A stretch of DNA of 64,000 nucleotides, taken from contig CAJNYD010000052.1 in the NCBI GenBank assembly GCA_905331295.1, positions 1 to 64,000 on the forward strand, given 5' to 3'. Below, one piece after another: positions 7,147 through 64,000 of the stretch. The position numbers and the translations under genes were made by a program. Under the pieces are notes generated by a model. It was not told where the DNA came from and did not search any database. It saw only the letters and a list, made by a program, of their open reading frames with translations. Numbering within the stretch: the first letter of the stretch is position 1; every line of letters begins with the position of its first letter. Source of the stretch: Rotaria socialis. Taxonomy: Eukaryota.

Positions 7147-8656
7147 CAAAAAGAATTGATCTCTTATCGTGAAGACATCATAAATGAAAATGAAAATGAA
7201 AAGAAAGTTATTGTGACAGAAAAAAAACGAAATTCATGGTTACCTTTGCAATAGAAAGAAAGATTTGGTCGAAGGCTATACAGATTTTTTTTCTTCTTAT
7301 TATCACTTTTTCTGCTTACGTCAGAGAAGACGGAATATCATATCTGCTCATGATAGCGTTTCTAAGTAAATAACGGGCGTATCAGATTTTTTTGCAACAA
7401 TCGTATGCGGATGGATTTTCTTGAAGCGAAATAATATCATAATAACAACAGCACACATAAAATACATAGCTTCCTATCCGTTTTTTCCTTCGCTTGTTTA
7501 TTACTCGTTTTTAATAGCTGTTGTGGTATCGACATGCTTCTTTTTTCCTTTCTTTACGGCACGTGATGTGTACTTGTACTTTTTCCTTTAGATATATCTA
7601 CAAGCATGAGTCAGTGTACATTGTAAGAACATATCGGTGCTATATTTTGAAACGTCTTGGGTTCATAATGCACTTTATAGATTAAACATATATTTCCATT
7701 TCTATCGTGGAATGATGTTTTGAAGATGAATATTGAGGATGTGCGTGTGGTTGCAGACTGTCCGATGAATATATGAGCCAGATGACTAGCTTGAGTTTGT
7801 TGGACCCACACATCACTTCAAAGCGTTCAACCAAATCTTAATACAGATTCCTTGCAACCTTAATTGCACTTATTTTCGCACTCCACCTAGCCAAACAATC
7901 ATAGCAATGAGTTGAACCTATCAAATTCGTTTGAGCCATTGACTAGTTTTGCTGCTATTTCAATTTGGGCCATTTCAAGTGCTACAAAAGTATTCACAGC
8001 GTATATTTCGACGAAAGTATAGGACAAATCTAGTATTTTCTAGAAAAAGAACTCGATGATTTTAAATATGGATTTAATTCTTAATGGCAATGCACTAATC
8101 CGATTACAGAATATTTCCATTGATTGAATCTAACAATTTGAATGTCTAAGCAGAAATAAAATATGCACTCAATCGTGAATATGAATATTGTGTGAATCAA
8201 CAAATGCATGCTACATTTACTCAAACTGAAGTTTGGATGCGTGAAAAACAGTTGTTGAGAATTTATTGAAGAAGTATTTTGTAATTATATAAATGAGCTC
8301 AAATTAATAAATTATATATTTAATATTTCATTTTGACTTGAATCTTGCCAGTATAGTTCTTTGTGGAATGTGATTATGGTGGTGTGGTGTGGTGTGCATT
8401 TGAATGTGGATAAAAAATGAACGAGGCTTCTACTTGGATATGAGGGTATGAATCATGAACGTAACATTTTTAAATCATAGAAAGAAAAAGACAGAATTAC
8501 AAAGTCTCTTTCAAACTTCGAAAATATCAACTTTTTATTTTGTTTGTATGAAAAATGATACGTGATCGATGACTTTCAGAGAATTTTATTACGCATTCTA
8601 AATTGAAAACTGATTACTATAGAAGCAAACTGTTTTTAATAATTCTGTTTTTGTTT

Positions 8657-9289: not shown

Positions 9290-9590
9290 GGTTCAAAATG
9301 AAGAAAACACAATATTTATGTGGATACTTGGGATGAGTGTGAGGTAATGTTTGTTTCCTACACGATGTTTCGAAATATTGATCTATCCTATAGACCACCG
9401 ACTCCTTTTATATATGCCCTAAACTAAAAATGCACGCCTGAAAGATGAGGTGAATAATTTTAGCACTTGAAATGAATATTGCACTTCCTTATTATTCATA
9501 ATAATACACTCAAAATTAATATTATTCAAGCGAAGGCTGAGTCAAATAAGCATTGCTGCATTTTTCGAAGAGGGAATATGGTATTGGCTC

Positions 9591-9635
9591 GAGGGTGTGG
9601 ATGTGAATTCGAAGAAAATATGCACCCACACTCAA
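9591..9635. repeat. Short element with inward-facing degenerate telomere-like arms
   Basis: GAGGGTGTGGATGTG-AATTCGAAGAAAATATG-CACCCACACTC; resembles the reverse complement of 10531..10582. Confidence 0.6.
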
Positions 9636-10530
9636 CATTAATAGAAGTATTAAATAAATAGACATTTATCGAAAATATTCGTGAATTGTGTGTTGTCATT
9701 ACGCATTACTATTTAAAATCAAAAACAATTATGTTTCAATGCAAGATGGGCAAGTAAGAAAAAATGTTGTCCTTGCCAAAATCTATATGTATTTGTTTAA
9801 AAAGAAAATTGATATCACTCAAATTTGGATACAACCTAATTATGACTTCAATCAAATCAATTTACCACAAACAAAATTTTAATCCAGTTACAGTTCAATT
9901 GTTTCTGTCCGATAAAAATTTAATTTGTTGTTTCGAAGTAGCTCATCATTGAAATATCGCATATTTTATTTCCAATCGTAATTTTTTTAGGAACCCAACA
10001 AACCAAAACAAGCTAGCGCAGAATTACAAGAGGCTGATCTGACAAAAGAAAGCTAGTACGCGTCTTTTATTCTGATTGTTCTGATCTCTATTAAATTTAT
10101 CCCGTTTCTAGCATCAATGGAAAAATTTGTGAATTGTATAGCAAATATGAGAAACAAACAAAACATTTGAAACAAATAGAAACGGGTAACCCACTTCGAT
10201 CTTTTTTCACATTAACCATGTTTTCTTTTTCTCTAGATTCAAATTTCAATGTACGAAATGGTACTGAAAGCTAGCCTGTTGATTCAACATATACCGGTAA
10301 TAGAAAACGCTTTCTTTTTGATTCTATATACTTTTCATTTTTCTTTATATTCAAGTTTCAGTTTGCCAAGCAGCTCAGGAACCTGTTCGATGTATTCGAC
10401 ATACGCTGGCAAGAGAAAACACTTTCTTTTCTTTTTTATCGTATCTCATTTATTTTTCTCTAGATACGAATTTCAGTTTATCAAGTTGTTACGGGCCTGC
10501 TCTCGCACTAGTCATTTCTTGTCTTTTCTC

Positions 10531-10582
10531 GAGGGTGTGGGTGTGTAGATGCGGATATATAGCTTCTTCGAATCCACACCCA
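10531..10582. repeat. Short element with inward-facing degenerate telomere-like arms
   Basis: GAGGGTGTGGGTGTG...CTTCTTCGAATCCACACCCA. Both this and the 9591 copy are preceded by CTC, giving CTCGAGGGTGTGG. Confidence 0.6.
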
Positions 10583-11102: not shown

Positions 11103-12529
11103 CTACTTATTGATCAATAATGCTAGACAAACACACATAACAGTATAAAAATATCCCAATAGTCTTCCATCTCTACGAAATGAAATGGACTTATTAGCAT
11201 TTGATTCAAAACATTGAAACAATGACATGTGAATATTTGTAATTGTTCCAAGATTTTCTCTTGATAAATAGATCGTTTGACGATTATCTCCGTTTGTAAG
11301 GACAATGACACCTACAGTGTTCTTCTCATTAATCAATATCAAATGTTTCATGCCCAATAATGTACCACTATGCCCCATGTACCGAACACCTTTGCTAGTT
11401 GTTTCCCAATACCAACATAGTCCAAAATGTGGCTCCTGAAGAAGCTCTTTAGCGTTTTTACTTGGCTTTTTTTGGTGATAAGGAATACGACCACCGCCTA
11501 CAATTGTTCGCATTGCGGCGATGGATTGTCGAGTAACAATGGTAGATCCTTGGCTCATGATCATACGAAGAAATATTGACAGAGAACGTGCAGACATACG
11601 CCAAAGGCCTGCAGGATATCCAATAATACTGAAGAATGGGAACTCTATCCATGTTGGAAAAGTTGTCTAAAAAGATTTTAACAAAACCAGGCGAAATATT
11701 AAACTGATAATGATATGTATTCATTTACCGATAGCGGTGTAAGATTAAATTGTGGTAATAGTTGTTTCCATACTGGAAGATAAGAGGCATTTGATGCATA
11801 TGTATAGTGGCGTACAAGGTCTTCTTGATTCTCGAAATCAGCTAGGTGAACGCCCATTTTTGTAATATCTATGTTCAATGGCTTGAAAATATTTTTCAAA
11901 ACATACTGATCATAAGGCATTTTTGTCATTCTTTCAACGACTAACGCAGCAAGAGCTGAGCCTTCATTCGAGTAATACGTGACGCTACCTGGCGGTTCTG
12001 GCAACCGATTCGATGTGTTTGGATTGATATATGTGAAACATATATCTGCTAAAGTTGTTTCCATAAAAGCACTATCACCCGGCCTGTAAAAATTTATCCA
12101 GCCTTGAGTGTTGACAGCAATAGAAGCCGAATGAGAAAGTAATTTGCGTAGAGTGATTGAATGAGAAGGATAATGTGGATGAAAAATTTTCCGATCAGGT
12201 TCAGATAGATATTGATTTATGTCTGTATCAAGATCGATCAACTGTTTTTCGACTAGCTGCATGACAGCAACGGCTATGAATGTTTTCGATATGGAAGCAA
12301 TAGTAAAAATTGATTTATCCACATTCATAGATACTTGCGGTAAAATAGATTGATAACCGAATGCTTGTTCATAGAGTACATCAGTAGCATTAACAACAAC
12401 AATGACTGCACCTGGTATATTCGATTCAGCAAGAGATTGTTCAATGGATTTTTGATTTGGGCAATATAAAGCATTATTTTCTGTAGTTATTAGGAATAGC
12501 ACAAGGAACAAGCGTAGCGTATCTGTCAT
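11103..12529 (-). CDS. Beta-lactamase-family (class C/AmpC-like) serine hydrolase, about 454 aa, two exons (intron 11667..11728)
   Basis: Motifs SxxK (ASISKT), LLSHSAS, YSN and HSG. Signal peptide and hydrophobic C-terminal tail. The 62-nt GT-AG intron gives a continuous frame (LTPLS|TTFPTW). Confidence 0.9.
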
Positions 12530-13619
12530 CTTTTGATTCTATGAGAAAAAGAATGAAAGTTTTTACGAAAAGATACTGTATTTAACGTTGTAATCGCTCT
12601 TGTAAGAAGCTATGCCGTTTTGCCACGTGTTGTATCTAAGGACAAACAGAAATGCAAATATCTTAAAAGTTAAGAGCAACCATCTATGAGATGGCAAGCG
12701 AGGACAGTATCGAAACTTATAAAAAAAATTACTATTGATACAAATATCAGGCAGCGTTTTGATAATGGATCTTTTTTCCTTTCTTTTTTTCTGTATTATC
12801 ATGTGCGGCTTCGATTCTCTTCTTTCTATTTTCTCTCGCTACTTGTTTTATACGTAGAGTTTTGTTTAGCCTATTTCTGCTTGCTTTATGTCTTGTCTAT
12901 ATTTCTATAGAGCACATAAAGCTTCTTTAATTGAGAAAAGCGAAAGAAAAACAACTTGACTTTTGTCAGATGCAAAACAAACACCTCGATATCATACGAA
13001 TTTCTGAATCAAAATGACTAATATTTTCAAGTATTCGACAAATATCTCCTCGGTGGCACAAATGATTATTTGAAGCAGAAAAATGCCTACAGAATTCAGC
13101 CACAATAAACATATTGAATCAATAAAGACTAAGAAAATCATCTTCCTTACAGTAACAAGTCACGCAGCACCAGAAACAGGTCCAACGAAAATGCTCTCGA
13201 AAAATGAAAAACCTTTGATACAATGAATGAAAAAATCTTTCGAGCGTACCACAACATATTCACCCATATTGGATAGTAGAAAGAAGAAACGTAATTTTTG
13301 GAGCTGCAAAGTTTGAAATAAATGGATGCGATGATTTTTCAGGTTGATTCAACTAATTTTTTCTTTAATTTCTTTTAGTAACATTAACAAAACGTTTTTT
13401 GCATGGAGAAATGTTATCGAATGAGAATGATGTAAATAAACAGTTATTGGTGTGTAGAAATGATTAAAAATTTTGCTACAGAAGTATTTATCGCTGCATT
13501 CTGGAGAATATTGCGATGCTTGTATTGCAGTCTATTTGAAATAATGAGATAATAGATTCTATTGTGTATCATCTATTGTGGCAAGAAAACTTGTTAGCGC
13601 AGCCCCTTTGGGGCTAAAA

Positions 13620-13928: not shown

Positions 13929-15006
13929 AAAGCGATCCTGGAGGTGTGGACGTGGTCGTGCGTACGGTTGATTAGGGGATTGACATCCGCACCCCTAAAT
14001 TGAAAATTCCAAGTTCATACACAGTCAGAACGCTCAAAGCTTCTACTGGAATTAGAAATGTATTTGATTAAGTGAACGAGTATTCTTTGACCACTGTCTG
14101 AAGCATTCAGCAGCGTTTCATTCGATCAGTGCGTTCTCTAAAAATATTTTCTTGGGAAAAAAATGTAAAAGTAAAATCATACAGTCGAAAACTTTGGGGC
14201 TATTCAAATGACAACGGTAACAACGTGCATTAAAACTACCAGAAATCAGCTATGATCATGACCCAACTACTTGTAAGTCATGCAAACACCAAAGCAACGT
14301 ATATTTTTGCAAAAATACTAACTAAGCTGAAGACATTCTAATCATCAGGCAAAGTAAACACAGACGATGATACGCAAACGCATGGAAAGCATCCTATTAC
14401 ATTGAAAACAAAACAAGTTTCCACTGGTTGTAATAGTATAACCTCTGAAATATGTATTTTTTGTAGTCTTTGAACAATTCGAATTAATGAAAAGTTCAAC
14501 ATAAGCATCTGTTCAAACACTTGATTACATCAAAATTGTCTCGATACAATCTCACACCCACACCCCGTTATTCATTAGAATGAAAAGTATAATATAACAA
14601 GAAATTAAGAGCTTATCGAAGACTGCTGTGAGACTCCCAATAAGGCTTTATCCTCCATGTATCACGTAGGCTAAATTGTAATATATCTTTGGGGAAAATA
14701 TATTTGTCTACAGGTAATGAAAGTTCACTTTGAAACGGCTTACCCGTACTTGCTGGACATAATCAGGATGAACTAAGGTTTGTGGACGGCAACAGATTAA
14801 GTGTGTATTAATAAAGATGGTAACTGTCGATGAAAATAATAAACAATAACTGAACTGGTTAAAGAGAGAGAGAGAGGAACACAAGGCGGCCAATGACCGA
14901 CAGATCAAAGAGAAAACATCAAAGAGGATTAATATGATGTAATTGATATATCATAGTGACAAGTTAAGTGCCAATGAGTACCATCTATTAATGCTAACAA
15001 CTACGA

Positions 15007-18970: not shown

Positions 18971-19729
18971 CTAACAAAAAAGATATGGTGAAAAAAATGG
19001 GTTATTGTCAATTCAGATAATCCATTCAGTTGCACAACCATAGAAAATATTTTACAAGGGGGAGAAACTGCAACTGAAGATACTACAGAGTGGGTGTGGA
19101 TTTAAATCTTCTGACTGACCACACGCGCCTTAATTCAAAACCTACCATAATAACTGTATCAATGTTCAAGTTTAATTGTCGGTTTATATAAGGCAATAAA
19201 ATTGCAAATTGTAACCAAATCAGTACTGCATATTTCGCATGGATGAAAATACGTATCAAACTTCGGATTAAAGATTGAAATTTACTGCCCACTACTTTTC
19301 TTTCTTTATCATGCAAATTGGTGGCCAATAACCTAAGTATTACCATAAATTCAGAATATTTAAAAAACGGCAATCATTACATCAAAAATTATTCAAGGAT
19401 AATTAGATACACAACTTAATCGATTCATTCCGCCAAAATTGTCGCTGATTTGCCTTTCTATTCATAGAACAGTGCAAGTTATGCAAAGTTCTAAATGGAA
19501 AACTATCTATGATTAAAAGCTCAATCGTTTCAATAGATGTCACTAGTCTATGTCATATTATTGTTTACCAGCAAATGAATCGATCTCGACCTCTCCAATG
19601 AAGTTTTACTGTCTTTGTTAATTTCATTTGTGTACTTAGTGTGTATTATTTCGTCACAATTCTTACTTAATTTTTAGTGTGAATTAACTACATTGCTTAG
19701 ATTCTTTTTCCAGATTTATACAGTGTACG

Positions 19730-28138: not shown

Positions 28139-28673
28139 TCATCGTATCTTTTTTTTTTCTTGTCCTTCTTTTTTTTGTAAGTGTCTTTGTTGTTGTTGTT
28201 GTTCTTTGATGGTGTGTACTTGTAATGAAATTACTTGAAAAGAAAGAACAAATTTGTCTCTTAATCTAGCTAACATTCTGTATATAAGAGGATACTGAAT
28301 TGGTATAATGATTTCATTCAAGTAAAATACATGGAAATACTAATTCGTTTTCTTTTTTTCTATTTGTGAAAATCTGAAGAAAAATTATGTTTATTCGAGC
28401 AACTGTTTCTTAATGATTGACTATGAGGTCAGATGCCGATCGGCACCGAATTGGTTTTTAACTTTATCATGCTAACTAACATCGTATCATTCAAGTAGCG
28501 ATTCAAAAGAATATCGAATGGAGAATTGGATCGCAGTTGTCACTACTGTTTGAGTTTAAGAAGATTTTATTCAAAACGAAAAAATAAACAAACGAGATTT
28601 GAGTAATTAGGCATTTACATGGAAAATCAAACAAAGATTAGCATGATTATTATCGGCAAAAAATCGATCATGT

Positions 28674-28913
28674 CTATTCTTTGGTACCAACCTCGGCATT
28701 GAGATGAGCTACTGGTGTTTCGTTAATTGTGAACTGATCGCCGGACAACCAGCCTTCATTTTCTGCATCTGCTTTCTTGCGTGGGTCAAAATCCGGTGAT
28801 TCTTGCTTCGGCAATTTCAGCGGCGATGATCATTTTTTCTTCTGAAAATATTTTCGAATAAATGATTTGGAAATCTGCAATAAAACAATCATACCTGAAC
28901 TTGGCGAACTCAT
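28674..28913 (-). pseudogene. Microprotein family copy 1, frameshifted
   Basis: Same two-exon structure as copy 2 (intron 28842..28894) but lacks 14 nt at 28792/28793, giving ...EARITGF-stop. Confidence 0.8.
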
Positions 28914-29859
28914 TTCGTGTTAGAGAACTAGTGTTGTTCATACCCTGTTGTACACGTAGCAAATTTGATTTTGTATTTGCTAAATCATCGATATGCATAC
29001 GCCTATATGCTAATTATTGTACTAACAAATCACTGATGAAAAATGCAATAGGAGAAGGAAAAGCTAATGTATTTTTGCGTATGTGTAACATAATTAGAAC
29101 CAGACGTCTCTTAACTGTTGCCAATCCGAGTTAGTCGACGACATCCAGTGAACAAGGGCACTTATAGCTTATTGGTTGAGAGTATTGAGTACGCTTTTGT
29201 CAGAGATGATTCTGATATTGGCATAGGCAGAGACATAACTCTTCGGATTAGATATTTTACACGATTGATTGCACATCAGAGAATGATGGAAAGCTTTAAA
29301 AATAATAGCACATATTCATACGTAAAATGACAAGACAACAATCATCAATATATGAGATATTACGAATGTTGGTCCGATCATATTTTCGCATATAAAACAC
29401 ATATAAATTTGTTCAAAGAATCAGACTAATGAAAATATGAACTAACGTTTATTCAACATGATCCTAGTGAATGTATTAGACTTTAGTCAAGTATTGATCG
29501 ATATTTGTTACCGTCCAGTCATGCACGTTCAATATATGTTAGGACAAATGAATTTTTGTTCAGAATAGTAATATCCAAGTTATATACGTATGTCACCAGA
29601 TCAATTTTTTGTTTATTTCGAACACACTAGAGTAGGAGTTTTTCCAATACTTATCAACACGATGTACATAGCCCTGAATTCTTATCAGTTGTGGAAACTA
29701 CATCAGAAAAGAATCTTCATATGGTTCTTACTACAAACAGATGGAGCCATTTGTTCCTGAAAAACAAATTATCGTTGCATAAAAATGTTGTTTCACATTG
29801 ATGTGACTTAAAATAAAAATGTATTTGTACTTATTACTCGTGAAGTAATATTTTGGAAG

Positions 29860-29938
29860 CACATTCAATTGATGCATTTTCGTTACAACGAAACTTAAGT
29901 AAAGTTTATTCCGAAGCAATAGATGCGAAATTAAAAGC
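29860..29938 (+). pseudogene. Relic fragment of a duplicated SNRNP200 exon
   Basis: CACATTCAATTGATGCATTTTCGTTACAACGAAACTTAAGTAAAGTTTATTCCGAAGCAATAGATGCGAAATTAAAAGC aligns without gaps to 21034..21112 ([26 protein letters not shown]). Confidence 0.85.
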
Positions 29939-30374
29939 GTCTTCACTCGTTATGTTTATACTGTCACTCGAATATGTATTAACGCAAAACATTTTATGTG
30001 ATAGTTTTCTATTGGTGAAAAATCTTTGATGTGGATTCGAGCAACTATCTCTTGATTGTGAACTGTTAGTTGAGATGATGATAACTATCGAACTAGTTTT
30101 GTACTTCAGAGTGCAAACTAATATCGTATTATTTGAGTATCTATTCAAAAGAACATCGAGTGGAGAATTGGATTACAGTTGTCACTGCTGTTTGAGCTAT
30201 GAACCTCTGCAACTTGAAAACAAAACAAAATATAGATCTGAATTACTCGCTCGTTTAAGAAGATTTTATTTAAAAAAGTGCAGCAAATAACAAACGAAGT
30301 GTGGGTGATTGAAATTTGCATGAAAAAACAAATGAAGATGACAACGATTATTATTCGTCAACAGCCTGTTTTAT

Positions 30375-30629
30375 TTATTCTTTGGTACCAACCTCGGCAT
30401 TGAGATGAGCTACTGGTGTTTCGCTAATTGTGAACTGATCGCCGGACAACCAGCCCTCATTTTCTGCATCTGCTTTCTTGCGTGGGTCAAAATCTGGAGT
30501 TTCTTGACCGGTAATTCTTGCTTCGGCAATTTCAGCAGCGATGATCATTTTTTCTTCTGAAAATATTTTCGAATGAAATGATTTGGAAGTCTGCAATAAA
30601 ACAATCATACCTGAACTTGGCGAACTCAT
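30375..30629 (-). CDS. Novel 66-aa microprotein, copy 2 (exons 30629..30611 and 30556..30375): MSSPSSEEKMIIAAEIAEARITGQETPDFDPRKKADAENEGWLSGDQFTISETPVAHLNAEVGTKE
   Basis: A 54-nt GT-AG phase-1 intron at the same position in all three copies. Mostly synonymous divergence from copy 3. TATATAA about 100 nt upstream (30732..30738, minus strand). Confidence 0.85.
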   Translation of the reverse strand: MSSPSSGMIVLLQTSKSFHSKIFSEEKMIIAAEIAEARITGQETPDFDPRKKADAENEGWLSGDQFTISETPVAHLNAEVGTKE

Positions 30630-32561
30630 TCTGTTATATTTCGTGTAAGAGAACTAATGTTGTTGAGAAACCTTGTTGTAAGCGTAAGCAATTTGATATT
30701 GTAGATACCAAACGATCACTATGCATTAGCTTATATACAAATGGTTGTGCTAACAAATCACTACTGAAATACGCAATAGGAGAGTGATAAAAGAACTCTT
30801 TTTCTGCGTATATACGACACCAATAGAGCAGCAGATGTTTCTATAATGCTATCGTTCTGGGTTACCAAGGGCGTTAGACGATCGAGGATCTCTATAATTT
30901 ATTAATTGTGATTGGGTTATTGAGTACGGTTTCTTTTGCTGCGGCAATACTGCATTCAAATCAGAGAACGATAGAAACCTTGAAAAATACTAGCAAATGC
31001 CTGATGTAAAAGAGCAAGATAGCAATCATCAATAGATGAATAACAAAGAAGTCGCCGAACTCATCAATAGTGTAAATGACTTTATCGAAGATGTAGAAGA
31101 TTTTACCAATATTGTTCGAATATTATTTTCAATGTGAAGAATCAGTATTTGCTTTGCATATATAAAACACAGACATGACTTCATCGTCTAAATCTTCAAT
31201 AGAGAAAGAATAAGCCTAATGACGATCAATGGAAATACGAATCAATTTTAATTGAAGAATTTTCCACTGAATCTATTAATCGTTACCCCTCATTGCATAG
31301 ATGTTCGACATACTGTGAAAACAACTAAAATTCTAGTTTTAGTGTGTAATAGAATACTAGTTTTATCCAAAATAGACTATTTTCTAAAATAAATTTATTG
31401 TCAATAGTTCTTTTGAAAGTTTATTTTACGTTGACCGTCTTTAGAAGAATATATGAGTAAATCATATCAATATGAATTTGAATGGCAATTATTAACAAAT
31501 CGAACAATTGCAACATCGATACTATTAATATGTAAGATAAAATTTGAAAAGTCTTTATCTGTCGTTTGCTATAGTATGTAATCATCATCTTTTTTAGCCT
31601 GTTTACTAAGAAAATGGATTATGTTCGACTCTATAATTCTTTATCGATATTAGCTCGTAAAATGATCTCTCCTCAACGTGTCAATATGATCTTACAGAAG
31701 ACACAGCAGAAAAGAACATCCCTAATGATATAGTTCACATTGAGAGGAACGAAATTATTGTTAAAGAAGCCCTAATTTTTGTTGCATATATAATTTCTGA
31801 CCATTCAAAACTTTTCTTTTTAAAATACAACTATTATTTAACCTCAATCAAAAACATTTGTAACACGTTATGAAAATTTGTTCAAATACTGGATACACGA
31901 ATGATTTTAGAGACGAATAGTAATTCAAGCATGAACTATCTACACTCGAACATTATTTGGAAATTTTCTTATAGTTAGAGACTAATTAGAGCTATGATCA
32001 ACAAATATTTCATTGAAGTTTACTCCGTCAAATCTAAAGTGTTATACAGCTGTTATTATTATTAAAGCATCTTTTTCTGATATGGTATACATGCGAATTA
32101 ATATGTCTTTCCTCGAAGTGGTGAACAAAAAACCAGTCCATACGATTAGCGGGAGCTTGCTCATTATTTTTCATTGAATCATATTTCAAAGCGAGTAGTA
32201 TTGATTAGTACATTCCTATCAAGTTCATATCTTTGGATGTCATACGGAAAAATTTTCTGAGTTGAAGTCCCAGTCAGATGACCTTCGAATTGGATTGTAG
32301 TGACCTTCTACAGAATTGTCATCACTGAGTCGCTTAATGACGACAGAATGATTAACAATATATGCAGTAAAATGAAAAAAATGATCGACAGCGATATTTC
32401 TGTCGTTTTGAGTCATTCCTGTTTGTGCTTATTGGTTGTAACTCTCAACACAGCGAATGTACTGACGAATTGTGTTCATCTTGTATGATATTTTGAATTA
32501 TTCATTAATGATCATTGCGAGATAAAAAAAACGATTGTTTGGTTAAGAAACGAGGTATGTT

Positions 32562-42051: not shown

Positions 42052-42844
42052 ATATTTCTGGATAGCGTCAATACATAATGCTTGGATGCGTATGAATGCT
42101 GAATAGTGAACATGTTAAATATCGGCAGCATGATATATATTCATACCCTCATAAATTAGAAATTCAACAAAGTCAAGTGGAATTTGATGTTTGGAACACC
42201 CACAAATGGACTTTGTGTGGCATTCTTTGTAACATCATCAATGGAGCTGCATTTCACAGTGTTTCTAGCCCTCTCATTATAGAATGCCGTGAATTCTGAT
42301 GCATTTCTGGATGGTGGGTACCACTGTTTTTTGTCTTGTTTCGACATCTGATGTGTAATTCTAGATTAATCATATGCTATTGAATAGAAAACTACCCTTT
42401 ATCTCCTGTTTGGAATTTACACCGACATTACTCGTTCTGTTCGTATCGTTAGATATTTTAATAATAGTCGGATAAAGATTAATCATATATTTGTACAAAA
42501 GATTTGCATTTTTCAACTCAATTGATATCAACGATTGAGTATACTTTTAGTTTGATCGACACAAAAATCTTCGATTCATATGTAATCTGAATTATTGAGT
42601 TGTATTTATCTCATTTGCGAGTAAATATAATTAATGTGCATGATATTCTAGTCAACCAATCATTAGATCTATATAGCAAAAGATTGTTAGAGACGAATAA
42701 GTCGCTTCTATTTGATGATTTTATTCAAAGGGATAAGGAACCGAACGACAAACAGAGCAAATAGGAAGGCTATTCACAAAATAGAGATAATTCCATGAGT
42801 AGGACAAGTATCGTTGACAAAACACCTTTGTACTTCTGTTATGT

Positions 42845-43107
42845 TCATTCCTTGGTACCAACCACCGCATTAAGAGGAGCTACTGGAGTTTCAGAAATTG
42901 TGAATTGATCTCCTGACAGCCAGCCTTGATTTTCTGCGTCAGCTTTCTTGCGTGGATCATCCGCTGGAGTTTCAATACCAGCAATTCTCGCTTCGGCGAT
43001 ATCAGCTGCTAGGATCATCTTGCTTACTGGTTCTAATTAGAAAGAAAATAGTTTAAAAATCTGAAGCAAACAAACAAAGAAATGAAACCTGTATTTGATG
43101 AACTCAT
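42845..43107 (-). CDS. Novel 68-aa microprotein, copy 3 (exons 43107..43089 and 43032..42845): MSSSNTEPVSKMILAADIAEARIAGIETPADDPRKKADAENQGWLSGDQFTISETPVAPLNAVVGTKE
   Basis: Absent from the ORF track. Has a 56-nt GT-AG phase-1 intron after a 19-nt first exon. 49 of the last 58 residues are identical to copy 2. Confidence 0.85.
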
Positions 43108-44765: not shown

Positions 44766-45530
44766 TTATTCTGTTTCAAATGTTTTCGGTTGTTCTTGAA
44801 GATCATTTGAATTTTCAAAAGGAACGACAGTAGGATGTGGTAGTTGATGTTCTTCAGCTGTCAGATGAAGCAATGATGCAATCGAATGTTCAATAGACGA
44901 AGCTGGTTGTATAAGCAGATCATGGAAAGTAGAAGATGAATGTCGTCGAACAGTAGAAGTCATATGCTCTTGCGCTGCGTGCCATTTATGTAAAATATGT
45001 TCAAATTCAGTCAGACCATGTTTAATTCGAGCTTGAAATTTTCGCTTACGTAATGTAAAAGTAATTTGTGAAAAAACAAGAATAATAAAAACCAATATAT
45101 AAAGTGTAAGAAAAAGAAAATGCGAACGATAGACATGAATAGTAACACAAGCTGTTATAGGTTCTAGAGATTCGTTTTTCTTCAATATTTCATCATATGA
45201 ATTATTTGATTTTAAATATTCTGAACATATAATAACACAAACATTATATTTGCCAGCAGTTAATTGCCTTAATTCAAGTGAATTTCTCCAAAATGTTAAA
45301 TTTTGTTGAGGCATCGAATGAGAATTTTTACTGTTATGACGTATAGTAAATTCATAGGTTTGACATTCCCGTTGATTATTGTTTTGCGCTATTTCAAATT
45401 GAAGATTGGCCGTACGCGAATCATGAATACGAGCACGAAGATAGAATGGACTTAGAACTTCAGTTTCTGTATTATTTGCAAATATTCCAATAGGAACTGA
45501 CAATAAACAAAGACTAAATAATAGATTCAT
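44766..45530 (-). CDS. Uncharacterised single-pass membrane protein, 254 aa (signal peptide, small Cys-containing beta-rich ectodomain, TM, cytoplasmic tail)
   Basis: Intronless ORF with an N-terminal signal and a TM segment FLFLTLYILVFIILVFSQI followed by RKRK. Paralog at 48260..48808. Confidence 0.8.
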   Translation of the reverse strand: MNLLFSLCLLSVPIGIFANNTETEVLSPFYLRARIHDSRTANLQFEIAQNNNQRECQTYEFTIRHNSKNSHSMPQQNLTFWRNSLELRQLTAGKYNVCVIICSEYLKSNNSYDEILKKNESLEPITACVTIHVYRSHFLFLTLYILVFIILVFSQITFTLRKRKFQARIKHGLTEFEHILHKWHAAQEHMTSTVRRHSSSTFHDLLIQPASSIEHSIASLLHLTAEEHQLPHPTVVPFENSNDLQEQPKTFETE

Positions 45531-46159
45531 GATAATTGTGTTATTCTGCCTTGTTATGCTACATCCTTATACATATATACACAAGTAATAAATGCTTTTT
45601 TTCTTATGATAATATAACATGCAAGAATGCACATTCTGCTACAATGCTTTTCCTTATTGAGATCAACGCTTTGTTTATTCATACGTTTTCTTGTAATAAC
45701 ATATAAAGAACATAGAATTAAGATAAATACGTCTCTTTTGAAAGTTGACCAAGAATTAATCATAATTTCCCCGATTGATAGTGAGCTGATAAATCTTTTA
45801 GAAGAATACAACGGCTTTTTCGTGACCATCATAACATTAGAAAAAACTCACACCACACTTATTATACAAAATTTTTTTATCGTAGGTCGAACTAATTAAA
45901 AGTAATTCACAAAATAGTTAAACTGAACAATCATCGCTGAAGGATGTGGAATTAATCGAGAGCATTCTTTGAGTTTTCTTATAGAGAAGGGAAAACTCAG
46001 TTCATATAAAATCATGAGAAATTCTTTTTTGCAAATAGGCAGCAGCATCAAACATCTCATTATCGACTATTTGCATAGATTAATATCAATTTCTATCTCC
46101 ATCATACAAATTTATTCAATCGACTTTTATGGAAAATTTCACAAAAGAATAACGTGTGA

Positions 46160-47164
46160 CTAAAAAAAGTCAGCTAGCCAACATGATGCACTACCATCGG
46201 AATAAGCTGTTTTGATGTTTTCAAGTTTGTCATTCGAAAGACGGATGTTACGTATCATCATATCACCTTTCTTCTCGATTTTTATCGAGTTAGCAGCCCA
46301 CTGGTTCAACTCATCGATACCAATATATTGAGGTAGACCATGAAAGCGAATAATATTTGTCTGATGTCGCTGTAAAATCTTTTCAGCTGCGGCTTTCAAC
46401 ACTTTTCGTTCAACATCAATATTTGGTGCTCGCCATTCATACACACAAATATCATCGATATTATTCGGTTTGCTAATTACCACATAGCCTGGCTCGGCGT
46501 CATGACAAATGTGCACAATAGCTTCATTGTGTTGCCAATCCCAGCCAGCCCAATGTGTGAACATAGTACCATTTGTTCGACTATACTGATACTTACGCGA
46601 AGTGTTTGAATGTATTTTAAATAGTAAATCTCGATCAGTTGATAATACTTCAGCTGCCGAACACCACTTGATATTGTTATTGTTAATAGAATTTAAATCG
46701 TTCCATTCGATAGTTACTATCATTGGTATAGATATTTGTTCCCAACCAAGCGCAGAATAATGATTATGCACATCAGTACCCAACATTGATAGATCAAATT
46801 CGCTACTTTGTTCCATCTTTTCAATCAATAACCGAAGAAGATGCCGAGAAAAGCCTCGTTTTCGATATTCTTCTGCAGTAGCAACATTGGAAATAAACCC
46901 ACACAAATATTCGTTATCATCCTCCGACGATTGAATTCTAAGACGTCGAATATGCGCTGTACTCACCAATCTTCCGTTGTGCCAAGCACCTAACTTATCA
47001 CCTTCTTGATAGTCTGGCGATGCTTCAGCAGTGTAAGAACGTTCGAAATCAGCTGGATTACAGGGGAAAATTGAATATAATAAATCGAGGACTTGTTTTT
47101 GCTCATGTTTTTTAATAGAACGATAAACAACCGACGACGTATCTACATCCCTGTTTAATGCCAT
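46160..47164 (-). CDS. GNAT-family N-acetyltransferase, 334 aa, intronless
   Basis: Acetyl-CoA binding motif A (ISNVATAEEYRKRGFSRHLL) and motif B (HYSALGW). The length suggests a second, degenerate GNAT-like domain as in Eis-type enzymes. Confidence 0.85.
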   Translation of the reverse strand: MALNRDVDTSSVVYRSIKKHEQKQVLDLLYSIFPCNPADFERSYTAEASPDYQEGDKLGAWHNGRLVSTAHIRRLRIQSSEDDNEYLCGFISNVATAEEYRKRGFSRHLLRLLIEKMEQSSEFDLSMLGTDVHNHYSALGWEQISIPMIVTIEWNDLNSINNNNIKWCSAAEVLSTDRDLLFKIHSNTSRKYQYSRTNGTMFTHWAGWDWQHNEAIVHICHDAEPGYVVISKPNNIDDICVYEWRAPNIDVERKVLKAAAEKILQRHQTNIIRFHGLPQYIGIDELNQWAANSIKIEKKGDMMIRNIRLSNDKLENIKTAYSDGSASCWLADFF

Positions 47165-48259
47165 ATTTTGATACTCTAATTAAAAAAAAAGCTATAGAAG
47201 ACATACAATAGGAACGATAGAAATAAGAGTCACTGACTATCGAAACACGTTATTTATATCGATACCATGGAATTTCGCAATCTGAATTTAGTCGATGCCG
47301 AAGTTCAGATTGCGAAATTCCGACTGTCGTTCTTTCACTTAGTCTCTCGGTTTGCAAAGTATTTTTCATTCCTTTTCTACCGCATGGCTTTTTCTCTGAT
47401 GTCGCAGGCAAACACGGGTGAGCTATCTGGTATTGAGGGAAAGCTGACATATAAACCGATGCAAATTCAAAAGATAACTATCTATTTCTCTCACCTGCCA
47501 ATTCCATTTTCTACTAACTCGTATAATTATGAAAAGAAATCGAACGGCTCTCTTCACATTTTAAATTAAATTTCGTTTCCTTTACTAATAATATATATAA
47601 AATGTGTTAGGAAACCCATTGTCAATCATATGAACCAGCTACCATGTGAGTAACGTGGGAGTGCGAGTCAAGAAAAGTAACAATGTTTCACCGGCGTGCA
47701 TTTTTTTTCTTTTTCTAGTCGGAGTCGTTCTTCCTTTTTTTTTAATTATTTTTCAGAAGAACGCAAGAGCAAAAAAAGCACACTCAACGCGTGCATATCA
47801 ACATTTGCTTAGCGTGGCACTCACATACAAGTATAATTTCCCATGTTTAAACAAATGCACACGACTAAAGATACTACTAAATAATAGAATCCGATGTTGT
47901 CTGAGATAATTCTTTGAATCGATATCTCTATTTGATTGGTGGAGGCAAAAAAACGAAGCGACCTTATTCGAGCGATTCCTGATTCGAGCTCAAATAATAA
48001 CAAACTGTTTTAAATAAGGACTACTATCACTTGTATTGTGTAAACACATAACAACGAATTTAAAAGTATAAAGAAAATTAGAACAATGGAGAGAATCGAG
48101 ACCAATAGATATCGCAGTAGTCTATTATAACAAGTTCAAAATAAGTACAAATGTTGATTATTCTAATTTGTTTTCATCTTGTTTGTATTCAGCAAGAAAT
48201 AACAGTATTGATGCATCGCAGATCTGAAAAAAATTTGATTGTATTCGAGTTCTATCGTA

Positions 48260-48808
48260 TTAACGTAAAATTTGTTTTAAGTCAATGAAGCTTTGATCGA
48301 TTTGTGCTCGAAGAAGTTTTCGTTTACGTAATGAAAAATCGATTTGTGATAAAACAAGAATAATAAAAACCAATATATAAAGTGTCAGAATAAGAAAATG
48401 CGAACGATACACACGAATAGTGACACAGGCTGTGATCGGTTTTGACAAATGTTTTTTCTTCACTATTTTATCATATGAATTGTTTGCTTTTAAATATTCT
48501 GAACATATAATAGCACATATGCGATAATTACCAAACGTTAATTGTTTTAATTCAAGTGAATTCCTCCAAAATGTTAAATTTTGCTGCGGCATTGAATAAG
48601 GATTTTTATCTTTATGTCGAACCGTAAATTTATACATTTGACATCCGCGTTGGTCGCCGTCATGTGCTATTTCAAATTGAACATTGACCGTACGCGAATC
48701 ATGAATACGAGCACGAAGATAAAATGGACTTTCAATTATAGTTTCTTTATTACTTCCAACAATTCGAACAGGAATCGATAATAAAATTATCATAAATAGT
48801 AGAATCAT
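48260..48808 (-). CDS. Paralog of 44766..45530, C-terminally truncated (182 aa); possibly a pseudogene
   Basis: Shares SPFYLRARIHDSRT, MPQQNLTFWRNSLEL, IICSEYLK and PITACVTI. The frame beyond the TAA still reads DASILLFLAEYKQ, similar to IASLLHLTAEEHQ in the paralog. Confidence 0.7.
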   Translation of the reverse strand: MILLFMIILLSIPVRIVGSNKETIIESPFYLRARIHDSRTVNVQFEIAHDGDQRGCQMYKFTVRHKDKNPYSMPQQNLTFWRNSLELKQLTFGNYRICAIICSEYLKANNSYDKIVKKKHLSKPITACVTIRVYRSHFLILTLYILVFIILVLSQIDFSLRKRKLLRAQIDQSFIDLKQILR

Positions 48809-50650
48809 AATTGTATGATTATTATTCTTCCTTTACGCTATTGTATAGATAATATTTGGGTCCTATTATATTCATACTAATTCACTGCCTCTACTCTTCA
48901 AATCGAGTTAATCTCTGCTCATATCTTTAGTGAAAAAAATACATGGGATAGAGAGTGAAGAGAGCTTGTTTTTCAAATTATTAGTCAGACGTTTAATGAA
49001 GTTGTTGATTTTTCGTCATTTTATTGCATAGATTTTTCATAACTATTGAATTCATCTATTGATATTGAACGACGATAAGCTGGATCAATTATAATACTTG
49101 AATCAATACCTTTATTTGTATTATACGAGTCAATATCATGCATATCAAATGACATATTAAGCATAGAGAGAGAGAGAGAGAGAGCATATTTAGTTAATAT
49201 GACTTCGAACGGTAAACGATTCATGAATCTACTTTAGATCAAATGCTAAAAAGAACGAGCTTAGAGCAAAAGAAATCACTTAGACGAATAACATCCATTA
49301 GCTTGAATGTTTATAATTGACTTACGCCAGAGGAAGTAAAAAACAACTTGATTTATTATCGACGACAACAGCTTGAAAGTATTATTAGAATAGTTAATGA
49401 ATCTACAACTTGATTCATCTGTATTGAATTTGAAATGTTGTTGTTTACATTTATCATCCTAGAATATCCCTGTAAACAATGTCTTGATAAGCTTTAAAGA
49501 ACTTTTCAAGGACGTATTTCTTACAACTTAGAGTAAGTGTTGATTTTTACGTCTATCCGATGACAAAGCAATGTTCTGTTCTCCAGTTACCGTTCCCATT
49601 TTGTACTGATATCGAGAATATCATTATGACATATCATCAGTATACAATCTGCATTGCATACAAATTCATCTATTATGAAACAATTGATGGGAAACGAAAG
49701 AGATGGATGTCATAAAAATGTCTGTTGTGTTCTCGCTTTTCTATTTCTTACTAATGACCCATGTATTGCATGGATCGCTTTCGTATGATCATCATCTGAT
49801 GATAAATGGTAATAATAAAAAATACTGTTTTTTCTCTTCTAATTTATTATTGAAAGAAGACTGGCAATTGTTTTTCCTACCGTACATTCTGTCAATGGTC
49901 CTATATATTGATAAAAACAATTTGTTTGGTGAAACAGCGACATTTTAAGATTATGTGGACGAATATCCAATTAAAAAATTTACAATATGCATATGTGAAT
50001 CAAATCAATTCGCTGGCACATCTGCATTCTTTTTCTTTTCTATTTCCAGGGATCAAACTGTTGTTCTGTAAAGTGACAATCAGTCTACCGGAATCTGACT
50101 AATGTATGATTTGTTTTTCCTATTGAGAAATATACATTTGATTATTGTTTTCATGAAAAAACTTTTTGTATTTTAATCAGTATCAATATTTTTGAGTCTG
50201 TTATACGGAAATGTTGTGAACGTTAGGGTTCGCGATAAACTAGATTTTCATATATGAGCTAATAGTGAAAAAGTAAAAGACATTGGAAGTTCTTAAATTA
50301 CTTAGAACTATGTGGTCTGCAAGGCGATTGAGAGTTTCTTTTATAGTGTTAGTTACTTATTTCAAGCAGTCATATTTGTCTTGACTTTATGCAAAACGAG
50401 AAACTCGTCGACGATATAAACCGGCGAATACACGGTGGTAACAATTATACTAAAAAATATTTAAAGAATTTTATAATATTGAAGTGAGAAAAAACGACTT
50501 AACTGCAAAAATATCAACATATAATCTGCATCCTCATTTCATGATGAAAATGTGCTTGTGCCGAAACGACCATTCAATTGTGCACGAGTGCATTGGCACA
50601 TCCCTTGTTTGTTTGGTTGACATTCTCAAGTTGTGTGGCTTGTCAACAAG

Positions 50651-60932: not shown

Positions 60933-62600
60933 ATGTCGATACTACACATTCTGTTATTTTTCATGTACTGCCTTTCAATCTATAGTGATTATTCATTATA
61001 TCATACCGATATTCATGAGCTGTCTAATCTAGACTTCGATTGTTTATATGCTTATTTAGTTGATGGTGGCAGAGAAATAGGTGGAAGTTATATTCGTAAT
61101 TATCATTTAATTCCATACTGTAGACGTCCTGATAATGATAAAGAATTGGAACAAGAATCTCATCTTAACCATGAGAATATAGCGCAACGGATAAGTTTTG
61201 ATGAATTGAGAAAACGCAATGTCACAAGTGAACAATTACTCGCCTGGCTTGCACCAATTGATGTTGCAGAAAAATATGAAATGAATAATGATGGTTCAGA
61301 TATTTTTTATCAATGCAAATCACCATGGTTTGGTCCTATGTGTCAATATAAATTCGGTCATAGTGTATCGATATCGTTCAGTGATATTGTTGAAGCTACT
61401 TTTAACAATTATTCGAAAATCATTGAAAATGTTACGACAGGTTCTTGCTATAGATTCTTAGATAATTGCAACCAAGAATTGTGGCCTCGATGTCTCGATT
61501 GGCGAGAAATTTGTGATGGGAAAACTGATTGTTTGAATGGAGAAGACGAACGTTGGTGTGATCAATTAGATATGACTAAATGCAGCGATCTTGAATATCG
61601 ATGTCATTACGGTGGTCAATGTATTCCAGCAGAATTTGCTAAAGACAACAGAATAAGTATTGATTGTCTAGATGGTAGCGATGAGCAAGAGGAGCATTTT
61701 CAATTTAGTTGGTTGATCTATCCCCAGTGTACGAATATTCAAACATTTCAATGTCAGGAACGTACTACTCGATACCCTTTCTCGTTCTCATGTGGTGATG
61801 GTCAATATTTATCGTCCTTTGATTTGCCTAATCTCATACGTAGCTGTTCGAATTATCGAGATATAGAATTCTCACGTTCAATCCTTACTTCGCTAGATCA
61901 TATCTCAAACATTGACTGTCGTGATGCATTTCTATGTGCTATGTACTCCAATCGAACACAAAATACAGGTAAGCATATATTTAGAGAAAGAAAATAAAAC
62001 TGATGAGTATATGAAAATCACTGTTCTCTTGTATTCAATCGATCACTTAAGAGAATATACCGAATAATCTCCAATTTTCAGTTTTTAAAGCTTATTAAAA
62101 GTCTTCATTTTTCAAGTGTTAGAATAAAGTTATATGAGACAATCTCACTAAACCAAATGATTCATTTTAGGGCAGCCTAATCCTGCAGACCTAGGACCGT
62201 TTGAATCGATTATTGATCATGTTTGGGATGAAGGCTGTCAACCGTTATCTCAGCATTGCATGATGGAATGGATCGTCATACCCGAAAATCCGACAATGTT
62301 TGGATTTTTTCAATTCGTTTATTTGACAAATCGATCGACAAGTGAATTTCAAGCAAGTCCTGCACCTGATTTTATTTGTTTCGATGCACAACGATGTCCT
62401 GTATTATTGGCTACGATCACCTCCATTAATATAGTTAATGGTCTTACATGTTGCCATATTTCTAATCTAATAGAATATGTCGAATATATGGACTTTTATC
62501 AATTACTATCAACGTTCCTGAATTTTGGTCGTAAATGTTTGAAGACAAGTGTAGAGAAATCATGTATTAATGCATCTTATTTTCACTGTAATGAATCTTA
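60933..62600 (+). pseudogene. 5' part of a large secreted/receptor protein with EGF and LDL-receptor class A repeats (exons 60933..61968 and 62171..about 62600), abruptly truncated
   Basis: Signal peptide, CKSPWFGPMCQY, CLDWREICDGKTDCLNGEDE and CHYGGQCIP...DCLDGSDE. Ends within a Cys repeat (YFHCNES). Confidence 0.75.
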
Positions 62601-62619: not shown

Positions 62620-64000
62620 TATTTTGATTAATTGAAATATTTGTTTTTATATGATAACCAAGAATAGGATCAAGAGAAAAAAGAAAACCTTTTGTTGAAA
62701 ATTGGCATTTAGCACCATAATAACAATCTTGACAAACACATGTCGATTTCGTTGGGCATGTTTCATTATTTTGAAAGCATTGTCCATCATTTTCACAATA
62801 GTTATGTCCTTGACAATCATAATTCATTGTATGATTAAATGAGAAACAATTGGAAAATCGTTCGAGATCACATATACAAATAAGATCATTATCATAGAAG
62901 CACATCATTGTTCTATTTTGTCGACATAAAAGTGGATAATATTTCGTTCGATTCAAATATCCAGAATTGATAATTGTATTATTAAGAAGCGTCGAAATAG
63001 GTAAACAGCGTTGCTGTGATTTTATTTCAGTATGAATATGTTCAGAAGGTATGGATGTTTCTCGAAGTATTCCTAAATAATAAGATCCATTTGGTATTTG
63101 CAAAAGAAGAATATTAAACGGTTGCGAAACATAAAGTGTGAGACCATGTCGATTATAAGGAACTTTTTTCAAAAGTGTTGTACGTTGATGTTCAGCATTT
63201 TTGAAAGCAGTAATAAAATGTACGAACAGTAAAGAGCTTTCTTGTATTCTTGTATCAACTAAATATATGGGTGTGGGGTGTGGGTGTGGGTGTGGGTCCT
63301 TCCTTAACTCACGCACCCACACACCCACACCCCACGCCAAATGAATTGAAGCGTTAAGCTAACATGTTGATTTTGCCATTGGCATTGAGCTCCAAAATAA
63401 TTCGGTGGACAAAGACATACTTTTGTTTCATTCATACCATGTAATACAACAATACCACGATGGGAATAGGAAACAAGAGTAGGATTAATCGTTGGAGTGA
63501 TTTCAGTTTTTGGATTCTGTTTGAAAATAATCGGTATCGAGCGATTATTCATTATTAGTGGGAAATAACCGAATCGGGCGCATGTGAGAAATACACCAGT
63601 AACCATTTTATAACCCATGTTCACGTCAAGATAACATATGGGTTCAATATGCTCGAAAAAGTGAACAGGCGTCGTCAAAGTCTCACCTACTTGATTACAT
63701 TCATGAACGTACAAATCCGACTGTGCTCGTAGCATTGATGTATTGATAGCACTTCGACAGATTTCCTCTAAAATATTACATTTACTCTTGTTTCACGACA
63801 TGTAGTCATTACTGATATCCTTCGTTCCATTATAGAAAATAACTTGACGAGAAGTTGATGGATTGCTGCAATCATCGAGATATTTATCAAATAAATGAGC
63901 ACGAGGAAAACAATACGAGATTTCGAAAGAGAAGTCACCACACACATACTCGTTTGACGAGCATAGACTATTTGGGCAATTTAACTCGTCAATACCATTT
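62620..64000 (-). pseudogene. Inverted internal portion of an LDLa/EGF-repeat receptor gene, disabled, running off the window
   Basis: NGIDELNC, CLCPPNYFGAQCQ and CENDGQC...CVCQDCYYGAKCQ. In-frame TGA at 63793..63795, a telomeric-repeat insert at 63269..63335, and a break after YHIKTNISINQ. Confidence 0.75.
63269..63335. repeat. Interstitial head-to-head telomere-type repeats (TGTGGG)n - spacer - (CCCACA)n
   Basis: GGGTGTGGGGTGTGGGTGTGGGTGTGGGT-CCTTCCTTAACT-CACGCACCCACACACCCACACCCCAC. Confidence 0.9.

Follow-up and report, generated by a model that had tools for sequence, protein, structure and literature searches.

The far end of the window, by which is meant the whole 64,000-nucleotide stretch analysed, holds the remains of a receptor gene. 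An intact protein of the family, P0113 (1575 amino acids), has matches to LDLa, EGF and 7tm_1 domains, and two pieces of such a gene lie on the minus strand. The upstream piece (63334–64000) corresponds to residues ~610–831 of P0113 and contains an in-frame stop codon at 63793–63795, while the downstream piece (62624–63268) corresponds to residues 1055–1269 and runs into a deletion of 17 nt at 62626, past which the reading frame is shifted. In the opposite orientation, the plus strand at 60933–62599 encodes the N-terminal half (residues 1–488) of a protein of the same receptor family. A homologue search with the downstream piece gave 95 homologues among 526 candidates, and those that were named are all bdelloid. 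The N-terminal exons match Rotaria socialis proteins at up to 98–99.7% and those of R. magnacalcarata at 86–94%, and the host is, judged by these identities, R. socialis or a very near relative.

The two minus-strand pieces are separated by an insert at 63269–63333 that consists of two telomere-like tracts and a short spacer. The left arm, located by a tract scan at 63269–63297 (plus strand), is a G-rich tract of ~4.5 TGTGGG-type units; the 12-nt spacer CCTTCCTTAACT, at 63298–63309, has no G on its plus strand; and the right arm at 63310–63333, both of these as read from the sequence, is a C tract on the plus strand, counted as ~3.5 units on the minus strand and including the variant units TGTGTGGG and TGCGTG. 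On each side the G-rich strand leads, 5' to 3', away from its own flank. The arms carry different variant units, and the left is no mirror image of the right. TGTGGG is found at the scaffold ends of A. vaga, and P. roseola has TGAGGG as its telomere unit and TGTGGG as a minor one (PMC7943196 supplement 10). On the minus strand the coding sequence runs up to the insert with ...SLTLQFIWR and takes up again beyond it, in a different frame, with IYLVDTRIQ..., and translation of the first frame on through the insert meets a stop within the spacer. A preliminary description of this DNA had given the coding break, the inward polarity and the 12-nt spacer, all of which are borne out. It had also placed the insert at 63269–63335; the right end belongs at 63333, since the CG of an Arg codon CGT (63334–63336, minus strand) is genomic. 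Contig ends and codons together mark this codon as the last genomic letters before the right arm; contigs of runs X5 and X7 terminate at 63334, and the T at that position is probably genomic as well. The first GGG of the left arm appears to be in register with the genomic T that precedes it, and the right-arm repeat with a GT supplied by the Arg codon, its putative priming site; codons and contig ends at this one site thus point to one or two register letters at each 3' end.

Two-unit tandem TGTGGG tracts arose in none of 60 Markov-3 simulations of 64 kb, and as periodic tracts the arms scored 56 and 40 bits, where the highest null score from 12 simulations was 23. The spacer occurs once in the window, even with two mismatches allowed. 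That it is a leftover of the coding sequence missing here was ruled out, as residues 832–1054 of P0113 (the 223 lost residues) offer no compatible codons. The spacer is codon-compatible with TFLNF (residue 460) and SFLNF (residue 1346) of P0113, a fit of a kind that 29 of 300 shuffled spacers also found somewhere in the gene. At the TFLNF site the window's own DNA differs from the spacer at 3 of 12 letters; SFLNF is a candidate source. One gene model, P0110, treats the scar (63259–63335, minus strand) as a 77-nt GT-AG intron whose removal restores the frame. This intron is the predictor's guess in a copy that bears other lesions, and it raises the thought that telomere-repeat scars may seed new introns.

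What stood at this site before the break can be stated to the base, and this is new here; among all sites examined, the scar is the one whose empty state is known. Intact single contigs from runs X4 and X3 have 678 nt between the positions equivalent to 63264 and 63339, an interval that measures 74 nt in the window, and two overlapping pieces in run X7 sum to the same intact length. Subtracting the 9 flank letters that fall inside 63265–63338 leaves 669 nt, and the comparison with P0113 gives the same figure, with 223 residues absent between Arg831 and Ile1055. Thus 669 nt of uninterrupted exon have been swapped for a 65-nt insert of G tract, spacer and C tract. The preliminary description had supposed a probable loss of coding sequence, and comparison with the intact allele puts that loss precisely where the insert sits and shows no duplication. 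Among 68 homologues with both flanks aligned, the median spacing from W to I is 223 residues (223 or 224 in 47), and only the scar-type records P0002 and P0110 have a spacing near zero or none.

The middle of the scar allele has a history of its own. Over 63334–64000 (minus strand) it shows ~61% identity to the intact R. socialis allele and 83% to an R. magnacalcarata copy. In 50-residue comparisons it matched R. magnacalcarata P0003 at 42/50 and 37/50 and P0113 at 19/50 and 29/50. An old divergent haplotype and a conversion tract are the candidate readings. P0003 has sequence present at the scar position, and some P0003-type residues persist just downstream in the window; since P0003 shares the divergent upstream haplotype and keeps the sequence at the scar, the loss is derived. 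P0003 and P0113 stand about equally near to the downstream piece, at 93%. On the whole these comparisons fit a loss on a single haplotype, though a join between two paralogues keeps some slight probability on account of that equal nearness.

The deleted allele appears in other data. Ten protein records lack the deleted segment, in five amino-acid variants: P0106 and P0002 have the insert translated, P0110 joins the two flanks directly, and seven, as indirect evidence, bypass the region by means of a predicted intron. With five variants on record, the deleted allele is not private. Gene models fused to FAH exist for both types, intact in P0102 and deleted in P0103, and suggest that the two are alleles of one locus. 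Contigs in runs X1–X4, four of the eight runs compared (X1–X5, X7, X9 and X10) and from two studies, start 56 letters before 63339, inside the insert position; runs X9 and X10, which like X11 have small shares, added no information at the scar.

A rearrangement junction had been reported about 650 bp from the scar, and had been taken as a sign of recurrent repair. It is real in the window, at ~670 nt, where 62599/62600 joins the minus-strand copy (near residue 1275) to the plus-strand N-terminal half (residue 488), and contig and homologue comparison showed a 10-nt overlap (62590–62600). It has no telomere repeats, however, and so has no bearing on the scar. P0100 reads across it, whereas six of the ten scar-type records run on to a normal C-terminus, which removes it as evidence for a recurrent route. 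Among the contigs compared, both sides show ordinary continuations, and in runs X3 and X5 the depth is wholly accounted for without a bridging contig. The junction is either a chimera or a private event of later date, and in both cases separate from the scar. Its chimera-like look, next to a scar that was masked in the contig comparison (63265–63338) and that none of the records compared shows whole, letter by letter, is what could be said for an assembly or amplification artefact. Such an explanation has almost nothing left to stand on when four runs from two studies share the same 56-letter overhang and the ten deleted-type records, two of them translating the insert, fall into five amino-acid variants.

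A second telomere tract lies at the equivalent of 63505, 167 nt from the scar, in another gene copy and not in that of the window. There it appears as a loose contig end in three of four runs (X3, X5 and X7), has the polarity of the right arm and includes a TGAGGG unit, and it is a second event, independent of the scar. The scar itself is a heritable null lesion in a copy that also bears a stop codon and a frameshift; that copy is dead for other reasons too, and the functional weight of the scar is small.

The reading preferred here, to which a probability of roughly two in three is given, is that both ends of a break were extended by telomerase-type copying and were then end-joined. A germline break, either one with resection or two lying close together, would have lost a 669-nt piece of the receptor exon. 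Priming on the one or two genomic letters that appear in register (a T for the left arm, GT for the right), telomerase-type copying would have added a few repeats to both free 3' ends, with telomerase a likelier enzyme than the Athena reverse transcriptase. End-joining would then have fused the two short caps at their tips, and the spacer could be a run-on or filler tail produced at that step. What the sequences show directly is how much was lost and where, together with the polarity, the lack of a duplication, the unlike arms and the recurrence of such pairs, and all of these favour this order of events; the sharing of words between loci beyond chance speaks against it, being contrary to a purely random filler. 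The preliminary description had proposed the same capping and ligation, which the 669-nt loss and the count of six convergent pairs to no divergent ones support, telomerase being the presumed agent. Desiccation is an unlikely cause here because the host is near a species, R. socialis, that is obligately aquatic in the species listing of PMC7943196.

The degenerate look-alikes that had been mentioned elsewhere in the window were confirmed by tract scoring. The window holds six convergent tract pairs and no divergent pair, and twelve simulations gave totals of three and one (a null of ~0.25 per window); the spacers differ. Besides the scar, there is an intergenic pair at 10533–10582 with a 27-nt spacer, which overlaps two plus-strand frames not recognised as genes, and the other four lie outside open reading frames of at least 100 codons. 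Three of these are degenerate (9580–9637, 13943–13994 and 19090–19128), and the weakest, at 7734–7811 with a 54-nt spacer, could be a chance match. Strong single tracts at 8378–8409 and 14553–14565 have no partner within 80 nt. Imperfect fold-backs at 53–155 and 47269–47321 bear no relation to the telomere unit.

A scan of metagenomes gave at least 120 loci (of ~300), from many organisms; one match in viral contigs was excluded. Twenty-six kilobases of metagenome flanks contained one convergent and no divergent pair. The spacer set was built from 24 loci in four assemblies with several AT-rich matches, less L085 and L086, leaving 22; two of the 24 loci were checked for rotifer origin, and both, L026 and L080, were nearest to rotifer clusters. 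All 22 spacers are different and none is palindromic, against 19 of 53 in the other loci. They run from G-rich to C-rich (105 against 79.5 ± 6.4, p ≤ 0.0004; other loci p = 0.77), and non-palindromic spacers with G before C are the pattern expected if two G-strand tails meet. The polarity holds when the six window spacers are added (p = 0.002), with the six alone at p = 0.62. Purine-rich untemplated tails found no support, with p = 0.46 for A/T polarity, p = 0.06 for purine then pyrimidine and p = 0.63 for run structure. Nor is TGAGGG clearly enriched as a fixed first unit, since TGA stands before 5 of the 48 initial GGG runs and before 14 of the 124 that follow.

No target-site duplication had been seen at the scar, and this stands: no flank repeat at the scar is longer than 4 nt, and across 22 elements the flank repeats of 1–4 nt resemble those of 462 mismatched-flank controls. 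This bears directly on the alternative that had been put forward earlier, a telomere-mimic mini-transposon, whose terminal inverted repeats would resemble the telomere repeat and which would have inserted with or before a flanking deletion. The hairpin into which the insert folds (−28 kcal/mol), the many dispersed elements, some with common starts, and the inverted-repeat flanks of L085 would suit such an element. It founders on the want of a duplication, on unmirrored arms, on the lack of any fixed length or fixed core among the elements examined and on a 669-nt loss precisely at the site, and is very improbable. MITEs and other transposons with terminal inverted repeats were rejected likewise, for lack of a target-site duplication, for unmirrored termini and for want of near-identical copies of fixed length in the window and the metagenome loci.

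Several metagenome loci deserve separate mention. At L085 (285–371), a similar tract pair is flanked by sequences that are themselves inverted repeats, and this may be a fold-back element of a different sort. At L026 (885–1160), a long form of the insert interrupts a rotifer open reading frame with an ADP-ribosyltransferase domain, and its contig ends in repeats. Related segments of 120–150 nt adjoin the inserts of L078 (1353–1474) and L096 (151–298), at opposite ends, and show no far-flank homology. A search for empty sites found no homologue for that of L089 and no alignable far flank for L078 or L096.

Another possibility is that no new telomerase action took place and that the break took up, through templated end-joining, a unit that already existed elsewhere in the genome, either a head-to-head tract or telomeric fragments. 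The pairs at 9580 and 10533 have their first 13 nt and a 10-nt word of the spacer in common, three metagenome arms (L009, L041 and L074) open with the same 12 letters, and telomere capture with microhomology has been proposed for tumour insertions in the portion of 10.1101/157560 that treats them. Against these stand the two arms of the scar, which both appear to begin in register with the genomic ends, its spacer, which is single-copy in the window, and the lengths of the elements, which vary from 38 to >180 nt; capture of a module is accordingly quite unlikely.

The spacers share more than random filler should. Of the 378 pairs that 28 spacers form, 7 have at least 9 nt in common and 4 at least 10 nt, where three null models of 150 rounds each gave means of 1.5–1.8 (maximum 6) and 0.3–0.7, respectively. 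Words are shared between samples, with 12 nt common to L046 and L096, 10 nt to L072 and L078 and to L030 and L078, and 9 nt to L117 and the window pair at 10533. The nearest-neighbour alignment sum for 27 spacers was 512 against 451 ± 14, above the maximum of 492 in 200 dinucleotide shuffles, and 7 of 54 arms pass out of the repeat through TGG and then ATG. All of this would suit an RNA-templated patch, in which a single round of reverse transcription made the spacer together with one arm, on an RNA that has unique sequence beside its repeat template, and the other end was capped separately. That RNA would be either telomerase RNA, copied on past the boundary of its template, or an Athena/terminon RNA, copied at its 3' end. 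The geometry resembles that of TERC-ITS types B and C as set out in section 11 of PMC8537989, and terminon RNAs terminate in (ACACCC)n according to the part of PMC6431247 concerned with them. The scar spacer itself, however, has no partner better than its shuffles find (p = 0.84), window and metagenome spacers show no excess similarity (p = 0.53), and related elements within one sample could share words through descent. Rfam gave no hammerhead and no telomerase-RNA family match in the window or 20 loci, although a 12-nt hammerhead remnant would be too short to match its models; its other matches were sub-threshold microRNA hairpins over repeats and tRNAs in L017 and L041. No rotifer telomerase RNA is named in the titles or openings of the literature searched. 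Terminons as outlined in that same portion of PMC6431247, moreover, are 5'-truncated by telomeric repeats head-to-tail, which would give tracts on the same strand, not inverted ones. The shared words are thus a hint of an RNA template, one to which the scar spacer adds no sign of its own. The patch, more a refinement of double capping and joining than a replacement for it, is unlikely.

Known systems resemble the scar in parts. Insertion of an Athena/terminon element found no support, as neither the window nor 20 loci gave an Rfam hammerhead match, though a tiny remnant may have escaped; telomere repeats beside short unique sequence at broken or uncapped ends are common to both (in what PMC6431247 and PMC5537684 relate of such ends), whereas the scar has no open reading frame, no hammerhead match and tracts that are inverted and not tandem. 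Fusion of two chromosomes telomere to telomere, ruled out because the flanks are collinear within one gene, is represented by the human 2q13 interstitial telomere, which shares the head-to-head polarity (in the section of PMC7215372 dealing with it); the flanks of the scar are ordered parts of one exon and not two chromosome ends. Short interstitial telomeric sequences (ITS) and TERC-ITS of vertebrates, as treated in the relevant sections of PMC7215372 and PMC8537989, come closer, with short tracts at breaks, deletion and added letters and no duplication; they also have genomic letters in register, of which the scar may have one or two per side. Like short ITS, the scar has an empty allelic site and the changes of end-joining, here a 669-nt loss, a 12-nt spacer and no regular duplication. 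Deletions are the commonest change at short ITS in the survey portion of PMC7215372. As these sections present them, vertebrate ITS are rarely head-to-head and have short deletions, whereas in the window convergent pairs are the leading form of strong tract (~1 pair per 10 kb) and 669 nt were lost. TERC-ITS hold a piece of telomerase RNA, and none was identified in the scar. Three of 41 TERC-ITS in the set tallied in PMC8537989 are head-to-head, for which a second telomerase on the other end is invoked there.

Closer to the host, telomere repeats have been seen at deletion breakpoints in A. vaga as likely transient caps, in the part of PMC13564844 on neotelomeres. The bdelloid TGTGGG at deletion breakpoints is common to both cases, yet the A. 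vaga caps, in that account, are one-ended and transient, on unligated fragments that were rebuilt from the homologue, while the scar has two caps that were ligated and inherited. Two-sided insertions in tumours, in the relevant portion of 10.1101/157560, also have repeats of opposite orientation on both sides of a break and junction microhomology; they are somatic, make up 2% of insertions and are linked to ALT, and ligation of tract to tract is not part of the description given there. The deletions covered in the section of PMC2861651 that bears on this have microhomology and no telomere-repeat inserts. A literature search, with subscription papers, including the primary Athena/terminon ones, outside its scope, returned no account of a head-to-head class in bdelloids.

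Telomerase is normally suppressed at breaks, and telomere caps serve to prevent joining. Scars in which both ends were capped and then joined are rare in the data from vertebrates and tumours; should they prove to be the form that strong interstitial tracts usually take in bdelloids, they would amount to a countable fossil record of germline breaks, comparable between species that dry out and species that do not, and would be one way in which large receptor families lose genes. In a bolder and distinctly doubtful form, capping and ligation of both ends would be routine germline repair in bdelloids, even in species that never dry, leaving thousands of scars per genome and deleting pieces of genes, and the spacers would be read-through copies of the RNA beside the repeat template, such that stacked spacers would spell out part of a bdelloid telomerase RNA or a terminon end. 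The locus makes a handy test case, with its state before the break known, both alleles present in the species and a second gene copy with an independent tract.

The rest of the window has features of its own. Amid the degenerate pairs at 7.7–19 kb, a gene of the beta-lactamase family (PF00144) occupies two open reading frames at 11103–12538 on the minus strand and is possibly of foreign origin, as foreign genes are common in bdelloids. Old tandem and dispersed duplications, with 74–80% identity, lie at 28356–31039, 42836–43021 and 44984–48820.
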